64,000 nt of DNA from a virus (Duplodnaviria > Heunggongvirae > Uroviricota > Caudoviricetes > Crassvirales): IMG/VR virus record IMGVR_UViG_3300020045_007777, positions 37,741 through 101,740 of that record; one strand, 5' to 3'. Position 1 is the stretch's first letter, and each line of letters starts with the position of its first letter. Below the pieces are notes generated by a model. That model was given only the letters and a program-made list of their open reading frames with translations, did not search any database and was not told the origin of the DNA. The translations under genes were made by a program, and so were the position numbers. Positions 9,400 through 58,580 of the stretch are shown in pieces.

Positions 9400-9474
9400 A
9401 CATCTAATTATTGATACAAATATAATATATTAAATCATTAAAAACAAATAAATTAATATATATTTTGTAATCAT

Positions 9475-20531: not shown

Positions 20532-22052
20532 TTATGACTGATATATAATACTTGGTATTAATGATGCAGTTCTTGATGGATCTTTTACCATAGCACCTTG
20601 CATAGCGTAAGCTGTGATTGTAGCACTATCTTCCATTCTACCCATATTTCCAGATCCTCTTTCACCAGTGAAAGGATTTCTAAAACCAGCTTGGTAACCA
20701 CGAATTTCTTCCATATCACGTACAGCTACTTTTTGGATATTAGGCTCTTCAGTTGAACCAATATAAAGAATATCATATCTATAAGATTCAGCAACACCAC
20801 CATCTGGATGAGGTACTTTATTTCTTACTTTATCATCATACATTGGATCTACCTCAACCATTACTTTAATAGAGTTAGCAAACTCATATTCTGTAAATTG
20901 GTAACCTGCTTTAAAAGCATTTGAATGAAGTGGTGAACTTACTTTTTGAACAACAGCTGGGTTGTTTTGAGAAAGTTCTCTCCAAGCTTGTCCTTCACGA
21001 TTAATTGCTTGACTAAATTGTTTAGCTCCACGTTCACCTGTACGAAGTACAAATACTCTTTCTTTAAAGTCTAACTTACCTTCTGAAAGTTCATGCAACA
21101 TATCTTCCAAAATTCTCAAAGAGAAAATGTTATATGTAACAATATTTGAAACTTCCATTTGTTCTCTAATACCAGAACCAGATTCAATTTTAAATCCTGA
21201 TTTACCAACATTCAAGAAAGTACCATCTTCAGCTCTGTTTGATTTACCAAACATAATATTGTATGCTTTCAATCTTGACAAGTGTTGCTCAAATCTCCAA
21301 TAGATTTCTTGCATCCATGTATTAGATGTTCTTAGTTTACCAGCATTATCAAGTGATTCAATTTTAGCATAGAATACATCTGTAGCATTCAATTTGCAAT
21401 TAATCATATTACCTGGTACAGTTGTTTCAACACGAAGTTGTGACATTGTATTTTTCAATGTATATGGAGAACTGAAATTAATATCAGCACCTTTAATAGA
21501 CATTGTTCTTTCAACTGGAGCACCTTCAATAGAGAATCTTTCTCCTGTTAAAAGTTCAGAACCTGGTACACCTTGATATGTTTCAGGACCACCCCATACT
21601 TCTGCAGTATATACATAAGGTCCATTAGGTCCTTCTGGTTTACCATCAGATAACATACGATATTGATACACATCAGGTTTACTACCTGCAATTACGTGAA
21701 CGTCTGTAAAATATTTTTCAGCGAATACTAGTTCAATTTCAGTACGATTAGCACCTACATTATCAGTATCTTCTGTTACTACAGCTCCTTCAAATCTTGC
21801 TTCAATAAGTGGAATATTACGTTCATGCGAACCAACCATTTTCCAAATGAAATCTCCTTCATCTTCAAGATATTTAACAGGGAACATGTTAAGTACAGTA
21901 TCAAGATTTTTCATTCCTGCTTGTGCTAACAATATACCTGTAATCTGAGATGCAACCATCGGTCTAGTAGCATAGATCTGACCTAAGTGATTTCTAGTTG
22001 TTAATCCTGACCAATATTGTCCTTTAGTCATTACAAATTTACCTACACTCAT
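20532..22052 (-). CDS. Major capsid protein (HK97-fold candidate)
   Basis: 506 aa. It follows the portal and scaffold genes in the canonical order and is followed by a terminator. Its composition is typical of major capsid proteins. Confidence 0.65.
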   Translation of the reverse strand: MSVGKFVMTKGQYWSGLTTRNHLGQIYATRPMVASQITGILLAQAGMKNLDTVLNMFPVKYLEDEGDFIWKMVGSHERNIPLIEARFEGAVVTEDTDNVGANRTEIELVFAEKYFTDVHVIAGSKPDVYQYRMLSDGKPEGPNGPYVYTAEVWGGPETYQGVPGSELLTGERFSIEGAPVERTMSIKGADINFSSPYTLKNTMSQLRVETTVPGNMINCKLNATDVFYAKIESLDNAGKLRTSNTWMQEIYWRFEQHLSRLKAYNIMFGKSNRAEDGTFLNVGKSGFKIESGSGIREQMEVSNIVTYNIFSLRILEDMLHELSEGKLDFKERVFVLRTGERGAKQFSQAINREGQAWRELSQNNPAVVQKVSSPLHSNAFKAGYQFTEYEFANSIKVMVEVDPMYDDKVRNKVPHPDGGVAESYRYDILYIGSTEEPNIQKVAVRDMEEIRGYQAGFRNPFTGERGSGNMGRMEDSATITAYAMQGAMVKDPSRTASLIPSIIYQS

Positions 22053-23216: not shown

Positions 23217-23301
23217 ATTTCCCCTTTTTAAATATTTAACAAATATAGTATAAAATATAAAATTTTAATCAAAAAATTACAAATCCTATATGGCTAACAC
23301 A

Positions 23302-32360: not shown

Positions 32361-32458
32361 ATCTTATTTATTTAAAATTATAATCAAATATAATATATAT
32401 AATTGAGAAATCCAAATATTATTTAAAATATTTATAAAATAAAAAAGCCTGAGTTTCC

Positions 32459-32995
32459 TCAGACTTTAGAATTATGTTGATATATCCTATTACTTAATCC
32501 TGCAGATTTAATATAATAAGTTATTTCTGCTTTACTAAAACCATATTTAATAACATATGGATCATAAGATATTCTTTTATTTTTATTTAATTGTAAATGA
32601 TTCTTAATATCATTTAACATATTAGTTCTTCTTATTTTAAGTTCATCACCTTTTAATACAGTAATTATTTTTTTTCTATTTTGAGTAGTATGAATATTAC
32701 TTTTAAATAATTCATTATTTAATTGTCTTGCTTTAAAACTACCCATTCCAGAGTCATATATTTTTAATTCATTATCTAAATTAATATCTGATAAATCAAA
32801 CCATTCATTTGAAGAATCAGTTTTATAATTTTTAAATTTTTCATGTAATACTTTTTCAATTTGATCTTTTAAATCAAATACATATAAAAATTTTAATGTT
32901 CTAGCATTACTTGTTTGTAAATCTTTTATCCTTTGTAATGGATATTTACTTTTACCTATTTTTACATAGGTATCATCTGTTATTAAATATATCAT
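32459..32995 (-). CDS. T5orf172 (GIY-YIG-like) domain protein
   Basis: IYLITDDTYVKIGKS...RIKDLQTSNARTL...EKVLHEKF...EWFDL matches the T5orf172/MUG113 domain pattern. Confidence 0.6.
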   Translation of the reverse strand: MIYLITDDTYVKIGKSKYPLQRIKDLQTSNARTLKFLYVFDLKDQIEKVLHEKFKNYKTDSSNEWFDLSDINLDNELKIYDSGMGSFKARQLNNELFKSNIHTTQNRKKIITVLKGDELKIRRTNMLNDIKNHLQLNKNKRISYDPYVIKYGFSKAEITYYIKSAGLSNRIYQHNSKV

Positions 32996-33339
32996 ATAAT
33001 TTATTTTTTTTATATAATCTATCTAACAACAAGATACAAGAATCCCTATATGTGTTTTATCACATAACCGTCATTTTGATTTCATCTTGTTATTAAGCAG
33101 TGCATTTCTACCTAGATTTAACTACAATTAAGTACTTTAGCTTTACGAGAGCATATGTTAAATCAACTTAATAACTTGAATCATCGGGAACAGTGAAATT
33201 CAAGCATCTATCTACACCCTTAGATACTGGCGCCATTTTAGGTTGTCCAGCAGTGCGTCTTCTTAGATAGATTATTTTAATATTGTAAATATAATACATT
33301 TATTTTAAAAATCCTAATAAAGTTACAAATCTTATATAG

Positions 33340-33540
33340 CTAACTGTTGATTAAAATAGCTCTTAATATCTGTTTTGCAAGCTCAAAATCTTCTTCTTGA
33401 CCACTAACTGTTAAACCTCTTAACTTATTATACATATCTTTATCTATAATATTTGCTAATGTCATATCAGTTAATTTAATTCTAAAATTAGATTTATCTC
33501 TTTCATTATTCCATACTTCATCACTTAAACTACTTATCAT
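33340..33540 (-). CDS. Small-protein family member A1 (C-terminal LAxxIL motif)
   Basis: 66 aa, ending SGQEEDFELAKQILRAI. Confidence 0.5.
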   Translation of the reverse strand: MISSLSDEVWNNERDKSNFRIKLTDMTLANIIDKDMYNKLRGLTVSGQEEDFELAKQILRAILINS

Positions 33541-33718
33541 TCTTATAAATATTTATCATTTCATATGCTAATTGTAACATGTATTCATCTTCTGAATGTA
33601 TAAATTTATATATTTTATCTAATTCTTCATTAGAATGTTTATTTAAAGCACAAAGATTTTGTAATTCCATTATAAGATTATATCTCATTTGCATTTGATT
33701 CATCTTGTATTCTCTCAT
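33530..33718 (-). CDS. Small-protein family member A2
   Basis: 62 aa, ending SEDEYMLQLAYEMINIY. Confidence 0.5.
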   Translation of the reverse strand: MREYKMNQMQMRYNLIMELQNLCALNKHSNEELDKIYKFIHSEDEYMLQLAYEMINIYKNDK

Positions 33719-33905
33719 CTTTTCGTTTACTAATTATTAATTGTTTAGCTAATTCCATTAATTCTAATTCACCAGAATCTAACATATTATAAATATTATC
33801 ATATTCTTCTTTAGTGAAACTATACCTCATATTATAAAGTTCAGGATAATATTGTTTAAATAATAAGAACTTTTTAATATCATAATTTATTTTATCATAT
33901 TTCAT
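33678..33905 (-). CDS. Small-protein family member A3
   Basis: 75 aa, with SGELELMELAKQLIISK. Confidence 0.5.
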   Translation of the reverse strand: MKYDKINYDIKKFLLFKQYYPELYNMRYSFTKEEYDNIYNMLDSGELELMELAKQLIISKRKDERIQDESNANEI

Positions 33906-34191
33906 CTGTTATAATATCATGTTTAGTTTTAATTATTTCTACAGCTAAACTATAATCTTCATTTAGTTCTGAATGTAATAATGTATTAATATTTTTCTTT
34001 TCTATATCTGTAAACTGTGTTGATACTCTCAATATATCAGTATAAATATTTAATCTTACTGCTTTATCAAATTCATATTGTCCTTTATATCCAGTATATA
34101 TTTTAAATTGTCTTTGTTGTTCTTTTGATATTTTTTCTATCATTAAATCTTTTAATAAAGATTTTAAATCTTCTTTTTTTATATTATTCAT
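33895..34191 (-). CDS. Small-protein family member A4
   Basis: 98 aa, with NEDYSLAVEIIKTKH. Confidence 0.5.
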   Translation of the reverse strand: MNNIKKEDLKSLLKDLMIEKISKEQQRQFKIYTGYKGQYEFDKAVRLNIYTDILRVSTQFTDIEKKNINTLLHSELNEDYSLAVEIIKTKHDIITDEI

Positions 34192-34492
34192 ATGTCTTTA
34201 ATATTTCTTCTGCTAATGTATTATCTTCATCTAAATTACTATTAATTAAATTATATGTACAAATATATTGTTCTTTTGTCATATCACTATTTACAAATAC
34301 TTTAGTTAAATTTTCTTTCATTTCTTTTATAAAACGTGTTTTTGAAAATGTTTCATCAAAAAGTTGATCATCATTATAAAATGGATTTCTCATATTCATT
34401 AATTTAGTTGGATCTTGCACCATTATTCCATGACTAGCAAGAGTGTGAAAATCATAATTACTTATATGATTAATATTTATTAAACTATTCAT
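34184..34492 (-). CDS. Small-protein family member A5
   Basis: 102 aa, with DEDNTLAEEILKTYE. Confidence 0.5.
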   Translation of the reverse strand: MNSLININHISNYDFHTLASHGIMVQDPTKLMNMRNPFYNDDQLFDETFSKTRFIKEMKENLTKVFVNSDMTKEQYICTYNLINSNLDEDNTLAEEILKTYE

Positions 34493-34799
34493 TGTTATTT
34501 ATTTTAAGTAGTTCATAAACTACATTTATATCTTCTTCTATACCTGATTCTATTAAAGGTAATAGTTTGTTATTATTTATATTATTATTTTGTAGATATA
34601 ATTTGACTACAGCTACTTTCATTTGATATTTCAATTCATAAAAACATTCATATAAATCTTTACTTATTGCAAAATCATTTAAATCTTTTATTTGTTCAGT
34701 ATATTTAATTTGACCTAAATCAATTATTATATATTCTTTATGTTTTGATTCAGGATATACTCTATCCATAACATATTTTACATCATATTTATTTTCCAT
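34485..34799 (-). CDS. Small-protein family member A6
   Basis: 104 aa, with EEDINVVYELLKINN. Confidence 0.5.
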   Translation of the reverse strand: MENKYDVKYVMDRVYPESKHKEYIIIDLGQIKYTEQIKDLNDFAISKDLYECFYELKYQMKVAVVKLYLQNNNINNNKLLPLIESGIEEDINVVYELLKINNNE

Positions 34800-35121
34800 C
34801 TTTAAATTGTGATTTAAGTATTTCTAATGCTAATGTGAGATTATATAGATCATTTGTCTTAATTAAATCTTGTATATAATCTGTATTTAATTCAGGACTA
34901 ATATGTAACATTCCTAATATTGTTAAATATATCCTGTATGATTCTGATTCATTTTCATCAAATGGTTTATATAAATGATAATGTTGTGATTCTATTTGTT
35001 CTTGTATACCTTTTCCCATATTTATATAGCTAAGTGTTAAATATACATATAATAAATGACTTTTCAAAATTTTTTTTAAAATTTTTTTTTGAATTTTACT
35101 GTAAGTGTGACATAAACCCAC
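34789..35121 (-). CDS. Small-protein family member A7
   Basis: 110 aa, with YIQDLIKTNDLYNLTLALEILKSQ. It is the first gene of the leftward operon. Confidence 0.5.
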   Translation of the reverse strand: MGLCHTYSKIQKKILKKILKSHLLYVYLTLSYINMGKGIQEQIESQHYHLYKPFDENESESYRIYLTILGMLHISPELNTDYIQDLIKTNDLYNLTLALEILKSQFKDGK

Positions 35122-35206
35122 AAACCCACCCCACTCTTTTTTAAGATTGGCGATACCCCGTGGCTTTCACGGAACGTCTAAGTATTAATTATAAAAACAA
35201 AGTATT
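35122..35206. promoter_or_regulatory. Divergent promoter region between the leftward and rightward operons
   Basis: Both gene blocks start here. It contains unusually GC-rich elements (cccacaaacccaccccactc, ggcgataccccgtggctttcacggaacg) in an otherwise AT-rich genome. Confidence 0.4.
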
Positions 35207-35572
35207 ATGTCAAAAGTAAACACATTATTCGTAGCAAGCGTTAAATCATTCAATGGTTCTAACGAAAGACCAGCAGAAGCTGACAAAAATGGTATTATGC
35301 CAGTTATTCTGGATGTAGTAGCAGGGTCTTGTCCTAACAAGAGAGTATTATCTGGTACAGTAGCAGAACGTGCTGACCTAACTAAAGGTAAAGCTTATCT
35401 TGTTAAAGCTGAAGAAATTGAAGCAGATGAATATGGACGTCAGTTCAGATTTACTGCTGTTAAAGAACTTGACTTCTCTGAGTTACTTCAAGCTACTCAA
35501 CACTTTGGCGTTGCCAAGATGATTGATGTAACTGAAGCTGTACCTGCTGAAAATGCTGAGTTCACAGAGTAA
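35207..35572 (+). CDS. Hypothetical early protein, compositionally distinct (GC-richer)
   Basis: 121-aa ORF. Its codon usage is visibly GC-richer than the rest of the genome. It is the first gene of the rightward block and is followed by a strong terminator. Confidence 0.6.
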   Translation: MSKVNTLFVASVKSFNGSNERPAEADKNGIMPVILDVVAGSCPNKRVLSGTVAERADLTKGKAYLVKAEEIEADEYGRQFRFTAVKELDFSELLQATQHFGVAKMIDVTEAVPAENAEFTE

Positions 35573-35585
35573 GTTATTACCAACT

Positions 35586-35612
35586 GATAGGAGCCCTTCG
35601 GGGCTTCTTTCT
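35586..35612 (+). terminator. Rho-independent terminator with UUCG tetraloop
   Basis: GGAGCCC-TTCG-GGGCTTC followed by TTTCTTT. Confidence 0.65.
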
Positions 35613-37568: not shown

Positions 37569-38096
37569 ATGTCTAAAGTTATATTAAAAAAATTAGGTCA
37601 TATTCAATATCCAGTGGGTACAGATATAAAAGGAACAATGATAGCTGTTAAAAATATGGCTGATGCTATTAAAGAATTATATCCATTACATGAAAATATG
37701 AAATATGGATTTAATTTATTTGTTAGAGGTTCAAGTGGTGCAATTATTGGAGGATTAATATGTGAATATTTATCTAATTATCCAATTAGAATTTGTCATA
37801 TTAAGAAAGAAGGTGAGTCATCTCATTTTAATAGTTCATATTTGACAAATCGTGAAGCTGCTAAAAATATCATTATTGATGATTTTATTTCAACAGGTGA
37901 AACTGTTAATATTATTTATCAAAAAATGATAGACAGTGAAATTAACAATGTTGATTTATTAATTGTAAGTGGTACTATATATGAATCATATTTACAATTT
38001 AAACCATTAAATATTATTTGTGAAGATTATTATCCTAGTGATAAATCAATGAATTATATTGATCAAACAGAAACAATGTTAGAAATACCATTATAA
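37569..38096 (+). CDS. Phosphoribosyltransferase (PRTase type I)-like protein
   Basis: NIIIDDFISTGETV matches the PRPP-binding motif (hydrophobic x4, D-D, x3, T-G-x-T). Confidence 0.55.
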   Translation: MSKVILKKLGHIQYPVGTDIKGTMIAVKNMADAIKELYPLHENMKYGFNLFVRGSSGAIIGGLICEYLSNYPIRICHIKKEGESSHFNSSYLTNREAAKNIIIDDFISTGETVNIIYQKMIDSEINNVDLLIVSGTIYESYLQFKPLNIICEDYYPSDKSMNYIDQTETMLEIPL

Positions 38097-45694: not shown

Positions 45695-45768
45695 GGTCTT
45701 ATAGCTCAGCTGGTTAGAGCGTCACACTCATAATGTGAAAGTCCCTGGTTCGAGCCCAGGTAGGACCA
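45695..45768 (+). tRNA. tRNA-Met (anticodon CAT; could alternatively be a lysidine-modified Ile2)
   Basis: Cloverleaf: acceptor GGTCTTA/TAGGACC, D-arm GCTC-AGCTGGTTA-GAGC, anticodon stem TCACA/TGTGA with loop CTCATAA, T-arm CCTGG-TTCGAGC-CCAGG, discriminator A. CCA is not encoded. Confidence 0.85.
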
Positions 45769-45800
45769 CTAATTATTTAGACATAATTAGAATTAGTTAA

Positions 45801-53684: not shown

Positions 53685-54134
53685 ATGAAACATAGAATAA
53701 CTATAAATAAACTTAATTATTGGAGAAATGGAAATGGTATTACAAATAAATGTTTGAATTTAAAATATTATATTAATAATACTTTATCTACAGAAATTAA
53801 TGTACAACATAATGATGAAATAACAATATTTAGCAAAACTGAAACTTATGTTAAAAATTCTGTATTTTATTTTAATGACAATAAATATAATAATAATTTT
53901 ATTTATAAAATATTCTATGAATCAGGATTTGGTATTAATCGCAGAAGATTAGATTTAGGTAGAAGAAAGTTTAAATATAAAAATTGTAGATCATGTGTAA
54001 TACCTGAAAAAGCTTTTGAATTATTACAAAGTAATGATGATCTTATTAAAAATATAGGACTTGAATTAATATCATTAAAAATATGTGAACATCTTAAATT
54101 AAATAAATTATATGATCTCATTGAATACATCTAA
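53685..54134 (+). CDS. Small-protein family member B1
   Basis: C-terminal FELLQSNDDLIKNIGLELISLKI. Confidence 0.5.
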   Translation: MKHRITINKLNYWRNGNGITNKCLNLKYYINNTLSTEINVQHNDEITIFSKTETYVKNSVFYFNDNKYNNNFIYKIFYESGFGINRRRLDLGRRKFKYKNCRSCVIPEKAFELLQSNDDLIKNIGLELISLKICEHLKLNKLYDLIEYI

Positions 54135-54471
54135 GAAATATCTTTGTAGATTTGTTATGAATAATAGTTTAGAATATAATACTATATTTTTAAAAATTTA
54201 TTTTAAAGGTAGTTATTATTATATTGTATGGAAAAGAGATATGAAAAAATGGTCTATGACTAATTCTAATACTTTTAGTAAAATAAATAAAAAAGTTTAT
54301 ATAAGAAATTATCAATCATTGCATACATTAAATTTAAATTATAAATTAAGTGTTGTAGAATTAGGAGATAATTTTTTTGATATGATACAATCTGATGATA
54401 CATATACTAGACAAATAGCTAGAGTTATTATATCTAATCAATTAGAAAATAATAAAGAAATTAAATTATGA
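54112..54471 (+). CDS. Small-protein family member B2
   Basis: C-terminal FDMIQSDDTYTRQIARVIISNQL. Confidence 0.5.
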   Translation: MISLNTSKKYLCRFVMNNSLEYNTIFLKIYFKGSYYYIVWKRDMKKWSMTNSNTFSKINKKVYIRNYQSLHTLNLNYKLSVVELGDNFFDMIQSDDTYTRQIARVIISNQLENNKEIKL

Positions 54472-54761
54472 ATTGTTATATAAGTTTAGTTGAAGAAAAA
54501 GAACAAAGTTTTTATGCTAATAGAATAAGATATAAATTTTATAAAATATTTTATAAAAATAATTATTATTATATAAATATTAATTCTAATAAAATAACTA
54601 TTCATAAATATTCATCTGAAATTCAAAATTTAAATCTCATTAAAAGATGGGGAAAAGTAAATTTAGAAGAAGGTATAATTAATTTATTAGAAAATTCTTC
54701 ATTAGAAGAAGATAGAATATTATTCTTAGAATTATTAAAAATTAAATTGAATGACATATAA
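54468..54761 (+). CDS. Small-protein family member B3
   Basis: C-terminal INLLENSSLEEDRILFLELLKIKL. Confidence 0.5.
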   Translation: MNCYISLVEEKEQSFYANRIRYKFYKIFYKNNYYYININSNKITIHKYSSEIQNLNLIKRWGKVNLEEGIINLLENSSLEEDRILFLELLKIKLNDI

Positions 54762-55056
54762 TTATATACAAACAATTAGAAATAATGATATTAAAGTATT
54801 TGAAATATGTATTCAATTAGCAAAATTTAGTTATTGTATAATTATATTATATGATGAAATATTAGATATTGATAATAGAAGATTTCAAATACAATTTCAG
54901 GATAGAATGCCTTGGTATATAGATTTAGAAAGATTCAGTCGAGTTGAAGGTTCTGTAGAAATTAATGATAATATATTTGAATTATTAAAATCAAAAGATA
55001 AATTAACACAAATTTTAGGAATAGAATTATTTAAGCAAACTATAAATTATGAGTGA
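54751..55056 (+). CDS. Small-protein family member B4
   Basis: C-terminal FELLKSKDKLTQILGIELFKQTI. Confidence 0.5.
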   Translation: MTYNYIQTIRNNDIKVFEICIQLAKFSYCIIILYDEILDIDNRRFQIQFQDRMPWYIDLERFSRVEGSVEINDNIFELLKSKDKLTQILGIELFKQTINYE

Positions 55057-55549
55057 AATATGGAAAGATATATTAAATTATAATGGTATATATCAAATTA
55101 GTAATATTGGTAGAGTTAAAAGTTATAAAAATAATAAAATAACAATACTTAAAAATTATACTAATAATAAAGGTTATCCTGAAGTAAATTTAAAATATAA
55201 TTCTAAGAAAAAACATTTAATGATTCATAGATTAATTGCTATTTATTTTATTGATAATCCTGAAAATTTACCAGAAGTTAATCATAAAGATGGTAATAAA
55301 TTAAATTATAAAATAAATAACTTAGAATGGTGTACACATGCTGAAAATATTCAACATGCATATGACACTGGATTACAAAAATTACAATTAGGTGAAAAAA
55401 ATTCATCAGCAAAACTTACAGAACAACAAGTTTTAGATATAAGAAAAATAGATAAATCAATTAGTTCTGCTATAATTGCAAAACAATATAATATGGGTAA
55501 AACTGCAATTAAATCTATACGAGCAAGAAAAACCTGGAAACACATTTAA
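55049..55549 (+). CDS. HNH homing endonuclease (NUMOD4 + HNH_3 architecture)
   Basis: WKDILNYNGIYQISNIGRVKS is the NUMOD4-like part. EVNHKDGNKLNYKINNLEWCTHAEN is the HNH part. Confidence 0.8.
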   Translation: MSEIWKDILNYNGIYQISNIGRVKSYKNNKITILKNYTNNKGYPEVNLKYNSKKKHLMIHRLIAIYFIDNPENLPEVNHKDGNKLNYKINNLEWCTHAENIQHAYDTGLQKLQLGEKNSSAKLTEQQVLDIRKIDKSISSAIIAKQYNMGKTAIKSIRARKTWKHI

Positions 55550-56521: not shown

Positions 56522-56884
56522 ATGAATAATTATAGAGCTGGAAGTGAATTATATAGAGCTTTTGTATATATTTATAGAACACCTATAACAAATACTATTA
56601 TTTATAGTAGATTTGCTATTAATAAATTAGATATAAACTTACAATATGATCATAATAAAAAAACTTATAAAACAGAGAAGTGGGGTTTAAATGAAAATAC
56701 TATTTTAAAAAATATAAAATCACATCAAGATAATAAAACAGAATGTCATTGGATTGAAATAAATCATTTTAAACTTGAAAATAGAGTTATTGATTTAATT
56801 AGATGTGAAGATGAAAATTCTAGAATTGTAGGTTATGAAATATTAAGATTAAAAATAGAAGAACTAAATTTAGTAAAAAAATGA
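56522..56884 (+). CDS. Small-protein family member B5
   Basis: C-terminal IDLIRCEDENSRIVGYEILRLKI. Confidence 0.5.
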   Translation: MNNYRAGSELYRAFVYIYRTPITNTIIYSRFAINKLDINLQYDHNKKTYKTEKWGLNENTILKNIKSHQDNKTECHWIEINHFKLENRVIDLIRCEDENSRIVGYEILRLKIEELNLVKK

Positions 56885-57452: not shown

Positions 57453-57785
57453 ATGAACACAGAAAAAGGAATTTTAAAAGTATTATTACAAGGTATTCAA
57501 CCAGGTTTAAAAATGAAAGATTTAGTTGAAATGGATATGGGTGCATTTTCAGAAGAAATTACTGAAGATGATGATTTAAGAATTATTACTAGAACATTTG
57601 TATCAAATGATGAAAGTATGAATAAATCAATTACACTATATATTCCTAAACAACAAAAACCTGATCAAAATGAAATCAATAAGTTCAATGTTGAAATACA
57701 GTCTGCTGTCAGTAAAGAGGACTATCAAAGAGCAGCTCAAATTAGAGATGAGCGAGATAGATATATTCAAAGTAGAAGTATCTGA
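57453..57785 (+). CDS. Hypothetical protein with C-terminal UVR-like motif
   Basis: EDYQRAAQIRDERDRY resembles the UvrB/UvrC UVR motif. Confidence 0.4.
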   Translation: MNTEKGILKVLLQGIQPGLKMKDLVEMDMGAFSEEITEDDDLRIITRTFVSNDESMNKSITLYIPKQQKPDQNEINKFNVEIQSAVSKEDYQRAAQIRDERDRYIQSRSI

Positions 57786-58068
57786 TCAAAACCATCATTT
57801 TTATTCTCAAACTGGTGAAAAAAAAGATACTTATAATTCTAAAATAATTATAATACCTAAATTAGGTATAGATTTATTATATTTACCTAGAGAAAGAGAT
57901 ATTATTCCTAAATTTAATAAATATATTATAAATGCTTATATGCATACAAATAATATTTCTTATTATTACATTAAAATAGAACCTAATATTCAAAAAATGT
58001 TAATAAATGATGATGAATATGGTAAAAGAATTGCTACTCAAGTAATATTAAATAAATTAAAATTATGA
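57670..58068 (+). CDS. Small-protein family member B6 (start uncertain; internal Met at 57748 is more likely)
   Basis: C-terminal KMLINDDEYGKRIATQVILNKL. The first 115 nt overlap the upstream gene. Confidence 0.45.
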   Translation: MKSISSMLKYSLLSVKRTIKEQLKLEMSEIDIFKVEVSDQNHHFYSQTGEKKDTYNSKIIIIPKLGIDLLYLPRERDIIPKFNKYIINAYMHTNNISYYYIKIEPNIQKMLINDDEYGKRIATQVILNKLKL

Positions 58069-58580
58069 AATATTTAGTAACATATCATATTTGGAAAGGT
58101 AATAAAAATGAACCTTATTATAATTTTAAAATATCATGTAATCCATTAAGATTTTATTTTGATAAATGGGAATGTAAACCTGCACCTCAAAATATATATA
58201 ATTCAAAAGTAATTAGTATTGAAATTGAAGATACTTTATTAATGATTATAAATAAATCTAAAGAAAATTATTATGGATTTAATACAATATGGTATAGTGG
58301 TGCTGGTAATAATCAAATGATAAGAAGAAGTGCTCAAGTATTTAAATCTCAATCAACAGATGAAAATTATGTATTAGCCTATGAAATATTAAAAATAAAA
58401 GTGATTGATGCAATTGCAAGACAAAATTCAGAACGACGTAGTAAAAGCTTGGCAGAAAAACGACAAAAAGGGTACAGTAATATTAGCGACGGGCAGCGGA
58501 AAGTCCAAGATATTTATAAATATACTCAAAAAAGAAAAGGGACAATGGTTACTAGTCGTACCAACAGAAAAACTACGTGA
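58065..58580 (+). CDS. Small-protein family member B7 (3' end uncertain)
   Basis: Contains STDENYVLAYEILKIKVID. Its last ~58 codons overlap the helicase gene and are low-complexity basic. Confidence 0.45.
   Translation: MKYLVTYHIWKGNKNEPYYNFKISCNPLRFYFDKWECKPAPQNIYNSKVISIEIEDTLLMIINKSKENYYGFNTIWYSGAGNNQMIRRSAQVFKSQSTDENYVLAYEILKIKVIDAIARQNSERRSKSLAEKRQKGYSNISDGQRKVQDIYKYTQKRKGTMVTSRTNRKTT

Follow-up and report, generated by a model that had tools for sequence, protein, structure and literature searches.

Host-takeover and anti-defence clusters, of which the SPO1 host-takeover module and anti-CRISPR loci are examples, are small, tandem, tightly packed and promoter-proximal sets of genes with high turnover and no database annotation, and they encode unrelated proteins that are expressed early. 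Another class of variable phage genes is represented by the T4 internal proteins IPI, IPII and IPIII, which are encoded by polymorphic loci and carry an N-terminal capsid-targeting peptide of ~10 residues that is cleaved by the prohead protease. In the Crassvirales, which are among the most abundant phage groups, most small genes are, to our knowledge, without a known role. Herein, a window of 64,000 nucleotides (positions 37,741 to 101,740 of IMG/VR record IMGVR_UViG_3300020045_007777, assigned to the Crassvirales; all positions below are those of the window) was analyzed with regard to a tandem of seven small minus-strand genes (array A) that an initial annotation, made from the sequence alone, had singled out. 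A second set of seven, which that annotation had counted as belonging to the same group, was recovered with the same motif profile as a plus-strand array (array B), and nothing else in the window matched. The 14 genes, ~7% of the 64-kb window, make up one previously undescribed family, one that is new but belongs to a familiar kind of hypervariable accessory array in phages, and no description of such a family was found in a literature search.

The locus resembles the takeover and anti-defence clusters in gene size, tandem and tight packing, promoter-proximal position, high turnover and lack of database annotation. It differs from them in that its 14 genes have one module in common and in that the promoter class of array A also precedes structural operons. 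With the T4 internal proteins it shares a short conserved terminal module on hypervariable small proteins, as well as clustered genes that vary between close strains; unlike their cleaved peptide, the module here is a predicted folded hairpin of 35 residues that occurs at either end of the protein.

The common module is a motif of ~32-35 residues, longer than the stretch first listed, with the consensus [ST]xEE..I..[LM][LI]-x-S-x-D-x-E-...-L-A-x-E-I-[IL]-K-x-K. It consists of helix 1 ([ST]xEE..I..[LM][LI]), a turn (xSxD) and helix 2 (xE...LAxEI[IL]KxK), and in a 48-sequence alignment its marker residues were retained in most members (S 44/48, D 35/48, L 38/48, A 33/48, E 33/48 and I 35/48). 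When profiles built from six array A members were run against 669 six-frame segments of the window, the left-out member was the top non-training match in six of seven cases (E 1e-4 to 4e-7, with one at 0.003), whereas member 2 was missed. The shared C-terminal motif proposed in the initial annotation is thus individually significant in six of the seven genes. In a further test, each protein was scored with a 13-member leave-one-out profile against 1000 shuffles of itself, and 10 of the 14 members of both arrays exceeded all of their composition-matched shuffles. In array A this held for five of seven, with member 7 at p=0.005 and member 2 at p~0.10; the copies in member 2 and in array B member 6 are individually non-significant. 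After iteration, the profile matched only 14 window segments, each on the coding strand of its own arm; member 2 reached E 5.5e-5 with this profile, which contains member 2 itself.

These results bear directly on the reading that AT-rich codon composition, by making proteins rich in K, N, I, L, E and D, yields the motif without any true family behind it. Such an artefact would find some footing in a genome of ~25% G+C and in the two non-significant copies, yet it is very improbable and is effectively refuted by the shuffle results, by the top rank of the leave-one-out matches and by the restriction of the iterated profile to 14 coding-strand segments. In addition, the motif is kept in relatives at 77-80% identity of the large terminase (TerL) and in unrelated contigs of 30-37% G+C. 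Similarity no greater than composition predicts was what the initial annotation had named as fatal to its claim, and the shuffles point the other way. No DNA-level repeats comparable to the motif were found in the window, so the conserved entity is the peptide, and it is on the peptide that selection acts. The motif was also considered as a DNA element, either a recombination site or a regulatory repeat, and this was rejected, as the stretches that encode it do not repeat at the DNA level.

The division between a constant module and variable remainders is clearest in near-identical strains, for which two contigs from one European Nucleotide Archive (ENA) sample, L059 for array A and L001 for array B, were compared with the window. 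The flanks of array A are 98-100% identical to L059 in nucleotide sequence, and members 5-7 are 97-100% identical in most 60-nt windows (95% in one), with proteins at 98-100%. In members 1-4, by contrast, the N-terminal halves fall to 61-80% nucleotide identity while the motif-coding parts remain at 93-100% (100% in member 2), giving whole-protein identities of 89%, 88%, 74% and 75%, respectively. Array B shows similar turnover: within flanks that are 99-100% identical in protein sequence to L001, members 1, 2 and 4 are 82%, 72% and 97% identical, one member has been replaced, and L001 carries two extra members and no HNH gene. Both the N-terminal divergence around a conserved C-terminal module and the rapid diversification described in the initial annotation are therefore evident at strain level. 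The ratio of nonsynonymous to synonymous substitution rates (dN/dS), calculated from small codon counts, was 0.44, 0.44, 2.1 and 1.1 in members 1-4 for the N-terminal part, and 0.15, 0 and 0.40 in members 1-3 for the motif part (undefined in member 4, where dS is 0). As judged from these substitutions, purifying selection acts on the hairpin.

In relatives at 77-80% TerL identity, motif genes are again the first after the divergent switch, lie on the TerL strand and number 1-6, so that a check of conservation and copy number suggested at the outset shows the position to be kept. Around the ATP-grasp gene, 4-6 motif genes occur in the relatives L004, L005 and L006. In the clade at 56-62% TerL identity, no motif matches were found within 10 kb of TerL. 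A possible counterpart of member 7, ending in ..LAI, closes the arrays of the relatives just before a conserved non-coding gap.

The origin of one variable part can be traced. In member 4, residues 2-50 can be aligned with a stretch of the phage's own major capsid protein (MCP), residues 307-354, which is equivalent to residues 304-351 of crAss001 gp32. The segment matches Pfam PF23898 at E 3.8e-5, which is below the curated cut-off, and phrog_11589 at E 1.9e-5; comparison of member 4 with the MCP by hhalign gave a probability of 84-89% (E 3e-6 to 7e-6), whereas none of seven control protein families exceeded 1.9%. The TGxxGxxQF core is retained in the member 4 orthologues of relatives, and in member 1 the N-terminus shows a weak match (P=0.005) to MCP residues 292-317, next to that segment. 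This capture of a capsid segment by member 4 shows how the arrays recruit new variable parts.

The AlphaFold model of member 4, built with five orthologues (predicted local distance difference test score, pLDDT, 85), contains helices at residues 6-56, 62-72 and 77-90, of which the last two form the hairpin (pLDDT about 93) and are predicted to pack on the preceding helix. For array B member 5, strands are followed by helices 87-93 and 98-114, with the hairpin at pLDDT 75-83. The motif is thus predicted to fold into a helix-turn-helix hairpin with two N-caps, packed against the helix or strand before it. A check for unrelated folds, proposed with the initial annotation, gave a divided answer: the hairpin is common to both arrays, while the N-terminal parts are predicted to be unrelated, those of array A being helical and those of array B beta-rich. 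Conservation is highest at hydrophobic core positions and at the two S/T-x-x-E/D helix N-caps, a pattern that fits a structural role, and motif conservation may be purely structural; the designation of the motif as an interaction helix is not borne out by it.

The proposed kinship with PBS-lyase/HEAT-like repeats fared no better. Pfam-A hmmscan (E<=1 for the 14 window proteins, E<=0.1 for nine relatives) reported no HEAT family, and NCBIfam reported none either. A PDB sequence search with the motif profile returned only designed helical repeats and chance matches, and no Foldseek match in PDB or BFVD had an E-value below 0.8. The hairpin does share with HEAT/PBS-lyase repeats (PF03130, PF13646) a length of ~30-35 residues, a predicted antiparallel helix-turn-helix arrangement, an acidic turn (xSxD here, xDxD in HEAT) and a second helix in which a small residue is followed by hydrophobics (LAxEIL here, VRxxAAxAL in HEAT). 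Unlike those repeats, it occurs once per window protein and builds no solenoid, two non-adjacent copies being seen only in the proteins P0020 and P0024 from outside the window, and the Foldseek neighbors of the member 4 model are generic three-helix bundles at E>2. The term HEAT-like is therefore a resemblance of predicted shape only, with which the hairpin is compatible but for which it is not diagnostic. The best neighbors of that model, themselves non-significant, are the Z domain of staphylococcal protein A and affibodies, which are likewise small helical protein-binding modules; at E 2-9 and with no sequence relationship, the likeness is again one of shape. Nor did any of the 14 proteins significantly match a family of another kind in Pfam or NCBIfam. 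Among PHROGs, no significant family was found for any member, the best being the MCP match of member 4 and a Ren-like match at E 0.066.

Beyond the window, 22 matches at E<=1e-3 were obtained when 1.84 billion representative proteins were searched with the profile. Nearly all of these matches are 60-190-aa open reading frames (ORFs) in which the motif lies close to one terminus; P0020 carries it twice. The phage-like contig L062 (69 kb, 37% G+C) has at least eight small motif genes (E<0.02), mostly with the motif near the N-terminus, and the phage-like contig L061 (130 kb) has three; in both contigs these genes lie in replication modules. On this evidence, the module is portable, being found at either protein end and in other phage lineages. 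One match, P0024, is a metagenomic, cellular protein of 739 aa with the order BRCT-[motif]-BRCT-[motif]-leucine-rich repeat (LRR). The hairpin sequence is present in it twice, as VIELLESGDNQNIVLALELLKGG and LLALLHSHDEANVTIALEMLDGG. P0024 differs from the phage proteins in being a large multidomain protein and a single borderline match (E 9.6e-4); its motif is followed by a stretch that is HEAT-like by eye (..DEIPEIRKTAKKLL..). No relatives of P0024 were found among 185,579 species genomes or in a word-indexed search with its motif region. Word-indexed searches with the 14-member alignment and the 48-sequence motif alignment returned only the source contig, which is 101,740 bp long, near-identical strains, or nothing. 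As it recurs in further large phage contigs and in one cellular BRCT-LRR protein, the module may be a widespread building block.

The genome that carries the arrays has two divergent arms, with a strand switch near 35,150. Its leftward arm encodes the large terminase, the portal, the MCP and the crassvirus muzzle protein. The MCP matches crAss001 gp32 (PDB 7QOF) at E 2e-135 and the muzzle protein matches PF25731 at E 1e-205, while portal, TerL and MCP also match PHROG families; the window thus encodes the crass-type MCP, portal, large terminase and muzzle by which Crassvirales are recognized. TerL is 38-40% identical to that of the cultured crAss-like phages crAss001, DAC15 and IAS virus, and blastn of the region against 50,697 phage records gave no DNA match, which together indicate an uncultured Crassvirales lineage.

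At the array A locus, seven consecutive minus-strand ORFs were confirmed, and the seven tandem genes of the initial annotation stand with their coordinates, except for the start of the first one. Its start is most likely ATG 35019 (76 aa) and not GTG 35121 (110 aa), since a conserved promoter-like block lies directly 5' of the ATG and a close strain has the same MGKGIQ start; the array, first listed as 33340-35121, then extends over 33340-35019. Neighboring genes overlap by 8-11 nt, with one junction of 41 nt, and these overlaps suggest translational coupling. The start of member 6 may be ATG 33688 (52 aa), which would restore an 11-nt overlap pattern; a protein identical to member 6 is called in public assemblies (P0005). 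Array B lies in the replication module, interleaved with helicase, ATP-grasp and superfamily 2 (SF2) helicase genes. Each gene of its first block combines a beta-rich N-terminal part with the common C-terminal hairpin. For member 6 of this array, public gene calling gives a protein of 106 aa (P0003) that starts at ~57748. Member 7 is directly upstream of, and overlaps, an SF2 helicase ORF, a position that is kept in L004 and L006.

Array A adjoins the divergent promoter region, and its genes are, as the initial annotation held, the first after the leftward promoter. The Bacteroidota primary-sigma promoter has TTTG at -33 and TAnnTTTG at -7, a pattern that the motif TTTG-N17-22-TATATTT[GA] in the window fits. 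This motif precedes the ATG of five leftward units, structural operons among them, by 15-25 nt and was not found in sense just upstream of rightward genes in the window, which suggests that the two arms are transcribed differently. The candidate for array A is embedded in a block that relatives also retain (TTTGGAATTGTCATTTATTAT..CTTAGCTATA). In the crAss-like model phage phi14:2, g108 and g110, with which the leftward arm begins, are among the genes that have middle promoters, which are used by host RNA polymerase (bioRxiv 10.1101/2020.03.07.982082). The description of the array A genes as early is not supported, given that their promoter class is that of the structural operons and that their positional equivalents g108/g110 are middle genes; by analogy, array A would be a middle unit and not an immediate-early one. 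Coordinates of all features are collected in Table 1.

Table 1. Positions of the array genes, promoter sites and neighboring features in the window.
Feature	Position	Strand	Remarks
Array A member 1	34789..35019	-	76 aa from ATG 35019; motif 34801-34902; leave-one-out p<0.001
Array A member 2	34485..34799	-	104 aa; motif 34491-34592; weakest copy (..LLPLIESGIEEDINVVYELLK)
Array A member 3	34184..34492	-	102 aa; motif 34187-34285; N-terminal part hypervariable across strains
Array A member 4	33895..34191	-	98 aa; motif 33916-34017; MCP-homologous segment
Array A member 5	33678..33905	-	75 aa; motif 33720-33821; 100% identical in L059
Array A member 6	33530..33718	-	62 aa; motif 33539-33640
Array A member 7	33340..33540	-	66 aa; motif 33349-33450
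Array B first block (members 1-4)	53685..54134, 54112..54471, 54468..54761, 54751..55056	+	four overlapping genes
Array B member 5	56522..56884	+	120 aa
Array B member 6	57670..58068	+	132-aa ORF; weak motif copy; shuffle p=0.04
Array B member 7	58065..58580	+	171-aa ORF; motif residues 79-114, then basic tail
Array A promoter candidate	35038-35068	-	host-type (Bacteroidota-like), TTTG-N20-TATATTTA; 19 nt upstream of first array A gene
Promoter motif sites	1792-1823, 9417-9448, 23240-23273, 32385-32416, 35038-35068	-	
MCP gene	20532-22052	-	
22-nt direct repeat	33332-33353, 35022-35043	-	86% identity; exact core TTAGCTATATAA
Non-coding unit	~33000-33330	-	~300 nt
T5orf172/MUG113-domain gene	32459-32995	-	
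Intergenic region with hairpin	~35125-35190		5-7-bp stem
First rightward gene	35207-35572	+	121 aa
Terminator-like hairpin	35589-35608		
tRNA-Met gene	45695-45769	+	anticodon CAT
NUMOD4/HNH homing-endonuclease gene	55049-55549	+	within array B

Altogether, arrays A and B make up a 14-member modular family in which a constant hairpin is joined to variable parts; with about even confidence, this family is read as a polymorphic accessory toolkit against fast-changing targets, most plausibly host factors. The hairpin would be a portable constant module that acts as a folding core, as a docking or oligomerization handle for one common partner, or as both, while the variable part would supply specificity. 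Genomes that otherwise hardly differ show exchange, replacement, duplication and loss of variable parts, and array A would be read from a promoter of the host-RNA-polymerase type as the first unit of the leftward arm. The rapid turnover of the variable parts suggests that their targets are themselves variable, most plausibly host factors, and a role in counter-defence or host takeover is plausible. Several observations weigh against this reading. No member has a homology link to any known function, and no characterized anti-defence or takeover homologue emerged from the PHROG, BFVD and PDB comparisons. Middle-type expression, as suggested by the phi14:2 analogy, would be unusual for classic anti-defence genes, and the N-terminal model of array B member 5 is of low confidence (pLDDT 50-66). 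The data do not call for a common binding partner, the top conserved residues being core hydrophobics and helix caps. Furthermore, dS is raised (0.1-0.2) in the strain-variable array A genes, which makes recombination with diverged alleles likely, and the strain differences may reflect such recombination instead of positive selection.

Several of the same observations would be accommodated if the genes were ordinary paralogs with a phage-internal role in transcription, replication or assembly, the hairpin being their folding core and the variation arising from weak constraint and recombination with no arms race. This explanation is possible, though on the whole unlikely. It is favored by the core and capping character of the conserved positions, by the raised dS and a dN/dS below 1 in two of the four variable members, by the interleaving of array B with replication genes, and by the constant positions, in relatives, of the terminal array A member and of the member upstream of the SF2 helicase; yet replacement, gain and loss of members at flanks of 99-100% identity would be unusual for core regulators, and close relatives have anywhere between 1 and 7 copies. 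A packaged cargo in the style of the T4 internal proteins, with the hairpin as a virion-targeting tag and the proteins ejected with the DNA to act before phage gene expression, is considered improbable. In its favor, numerous cargo proteins are housed in the capsid and tail of crassviruses (PMC10172136), array A is located, like the structural operons, in the leftward arm and has their promoter class, and member 4 contains a capsid-protein-derived segment. A short conserved terminal module on a hypervariable body, as in the T4 loci, would also suit such cargo. However, the motif genes of array B, L061 and L062 lie in replication and not structural modules, the module occurs at either protein end, and phi14:2, for which virion mass-spectrometry annotation is available, was scanned and has no motif genes. 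A more specific proposal, which is likewise a long shot, treats the hairpin as a docking handle shared by many phage lineages that would bring interchangeable bait domains to one hub, as a re-programmable adaptor toolkit; one bait would then be a decoy copy of the phage's own capsid-protein segment. The hub might be a phage machine or, for example, a host protease-adaptor system, as a phage ClpS homologue (PF02617) stands directly 5' of a motif gene in two unrelated contigs (L061:10116-10603 and L062:3771-4629); no ClpS gene was found in the window or its relatives. If the hairpin does dock to one partner, a single pull-down would reveal the target of the whole small-protein class. More generally, the separable constant module and hypervariable parts offer an experimental handle on Crassvirales accessory genes.

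Further features were observed around the two arrays. The direct repeat exactly brackets array A, and its 12-nt core was considered as a cassette boundary; it was rejected as such, being more likely a shared promoter-region sequence, and its near matches in the window equal the count expected by chance. The non-coding unit just downstream of array A is conserved and has its own TAnnTTTG-type promoter, and in relatives it has a hairpin and T-run terminator. Compensatory changes were seen in 27 of 46 predicted pairs across six phages, and the unit is only 51-74% identical between the window and the otherwise near-identical L059. Highly transcribed long non-coding regions have been reported for phi14:2. 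Adjoining the unit is the T5orf172/MUG113-domain gene, whose absence from the near-identical L059 indicates a recent insertion; this domain family is often tied to mobile homing-endonuclease-like genes. In array B, the site of the NUMOD4/HNH gene is occupied in L001 by a 111-aa motif gene.

On the other side of array A, the region between it and the 121-aa gene contains a hairpin at the same place in six related phages, with differing stems (CCGTG/CACGG, GATACC/GGTATC, TAGTCC/GGACTA, CATCC/GGATG and GGGG/CCCC). It is followed by a conserved G-rich stretch, AAAGAGTGGGGTGGGTTTG, identical in five of the six phages and one G shorter in the sixth. The hairpin and the G-rich stretch may form a promoter, an origin or a regulatory element, and the hairpin element matched no Rfam family. 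The 121-aa gene itself matched no Pfam or PHROG family, and a pattern scan with its sequence was also empty. It is kept opposite the array as the first gene in relatives, its G+C content is above that of its surroundings, and a strong terminator-like hairpin lies downstream. The rightward arm also carries a single tRNA gene, for methionine.

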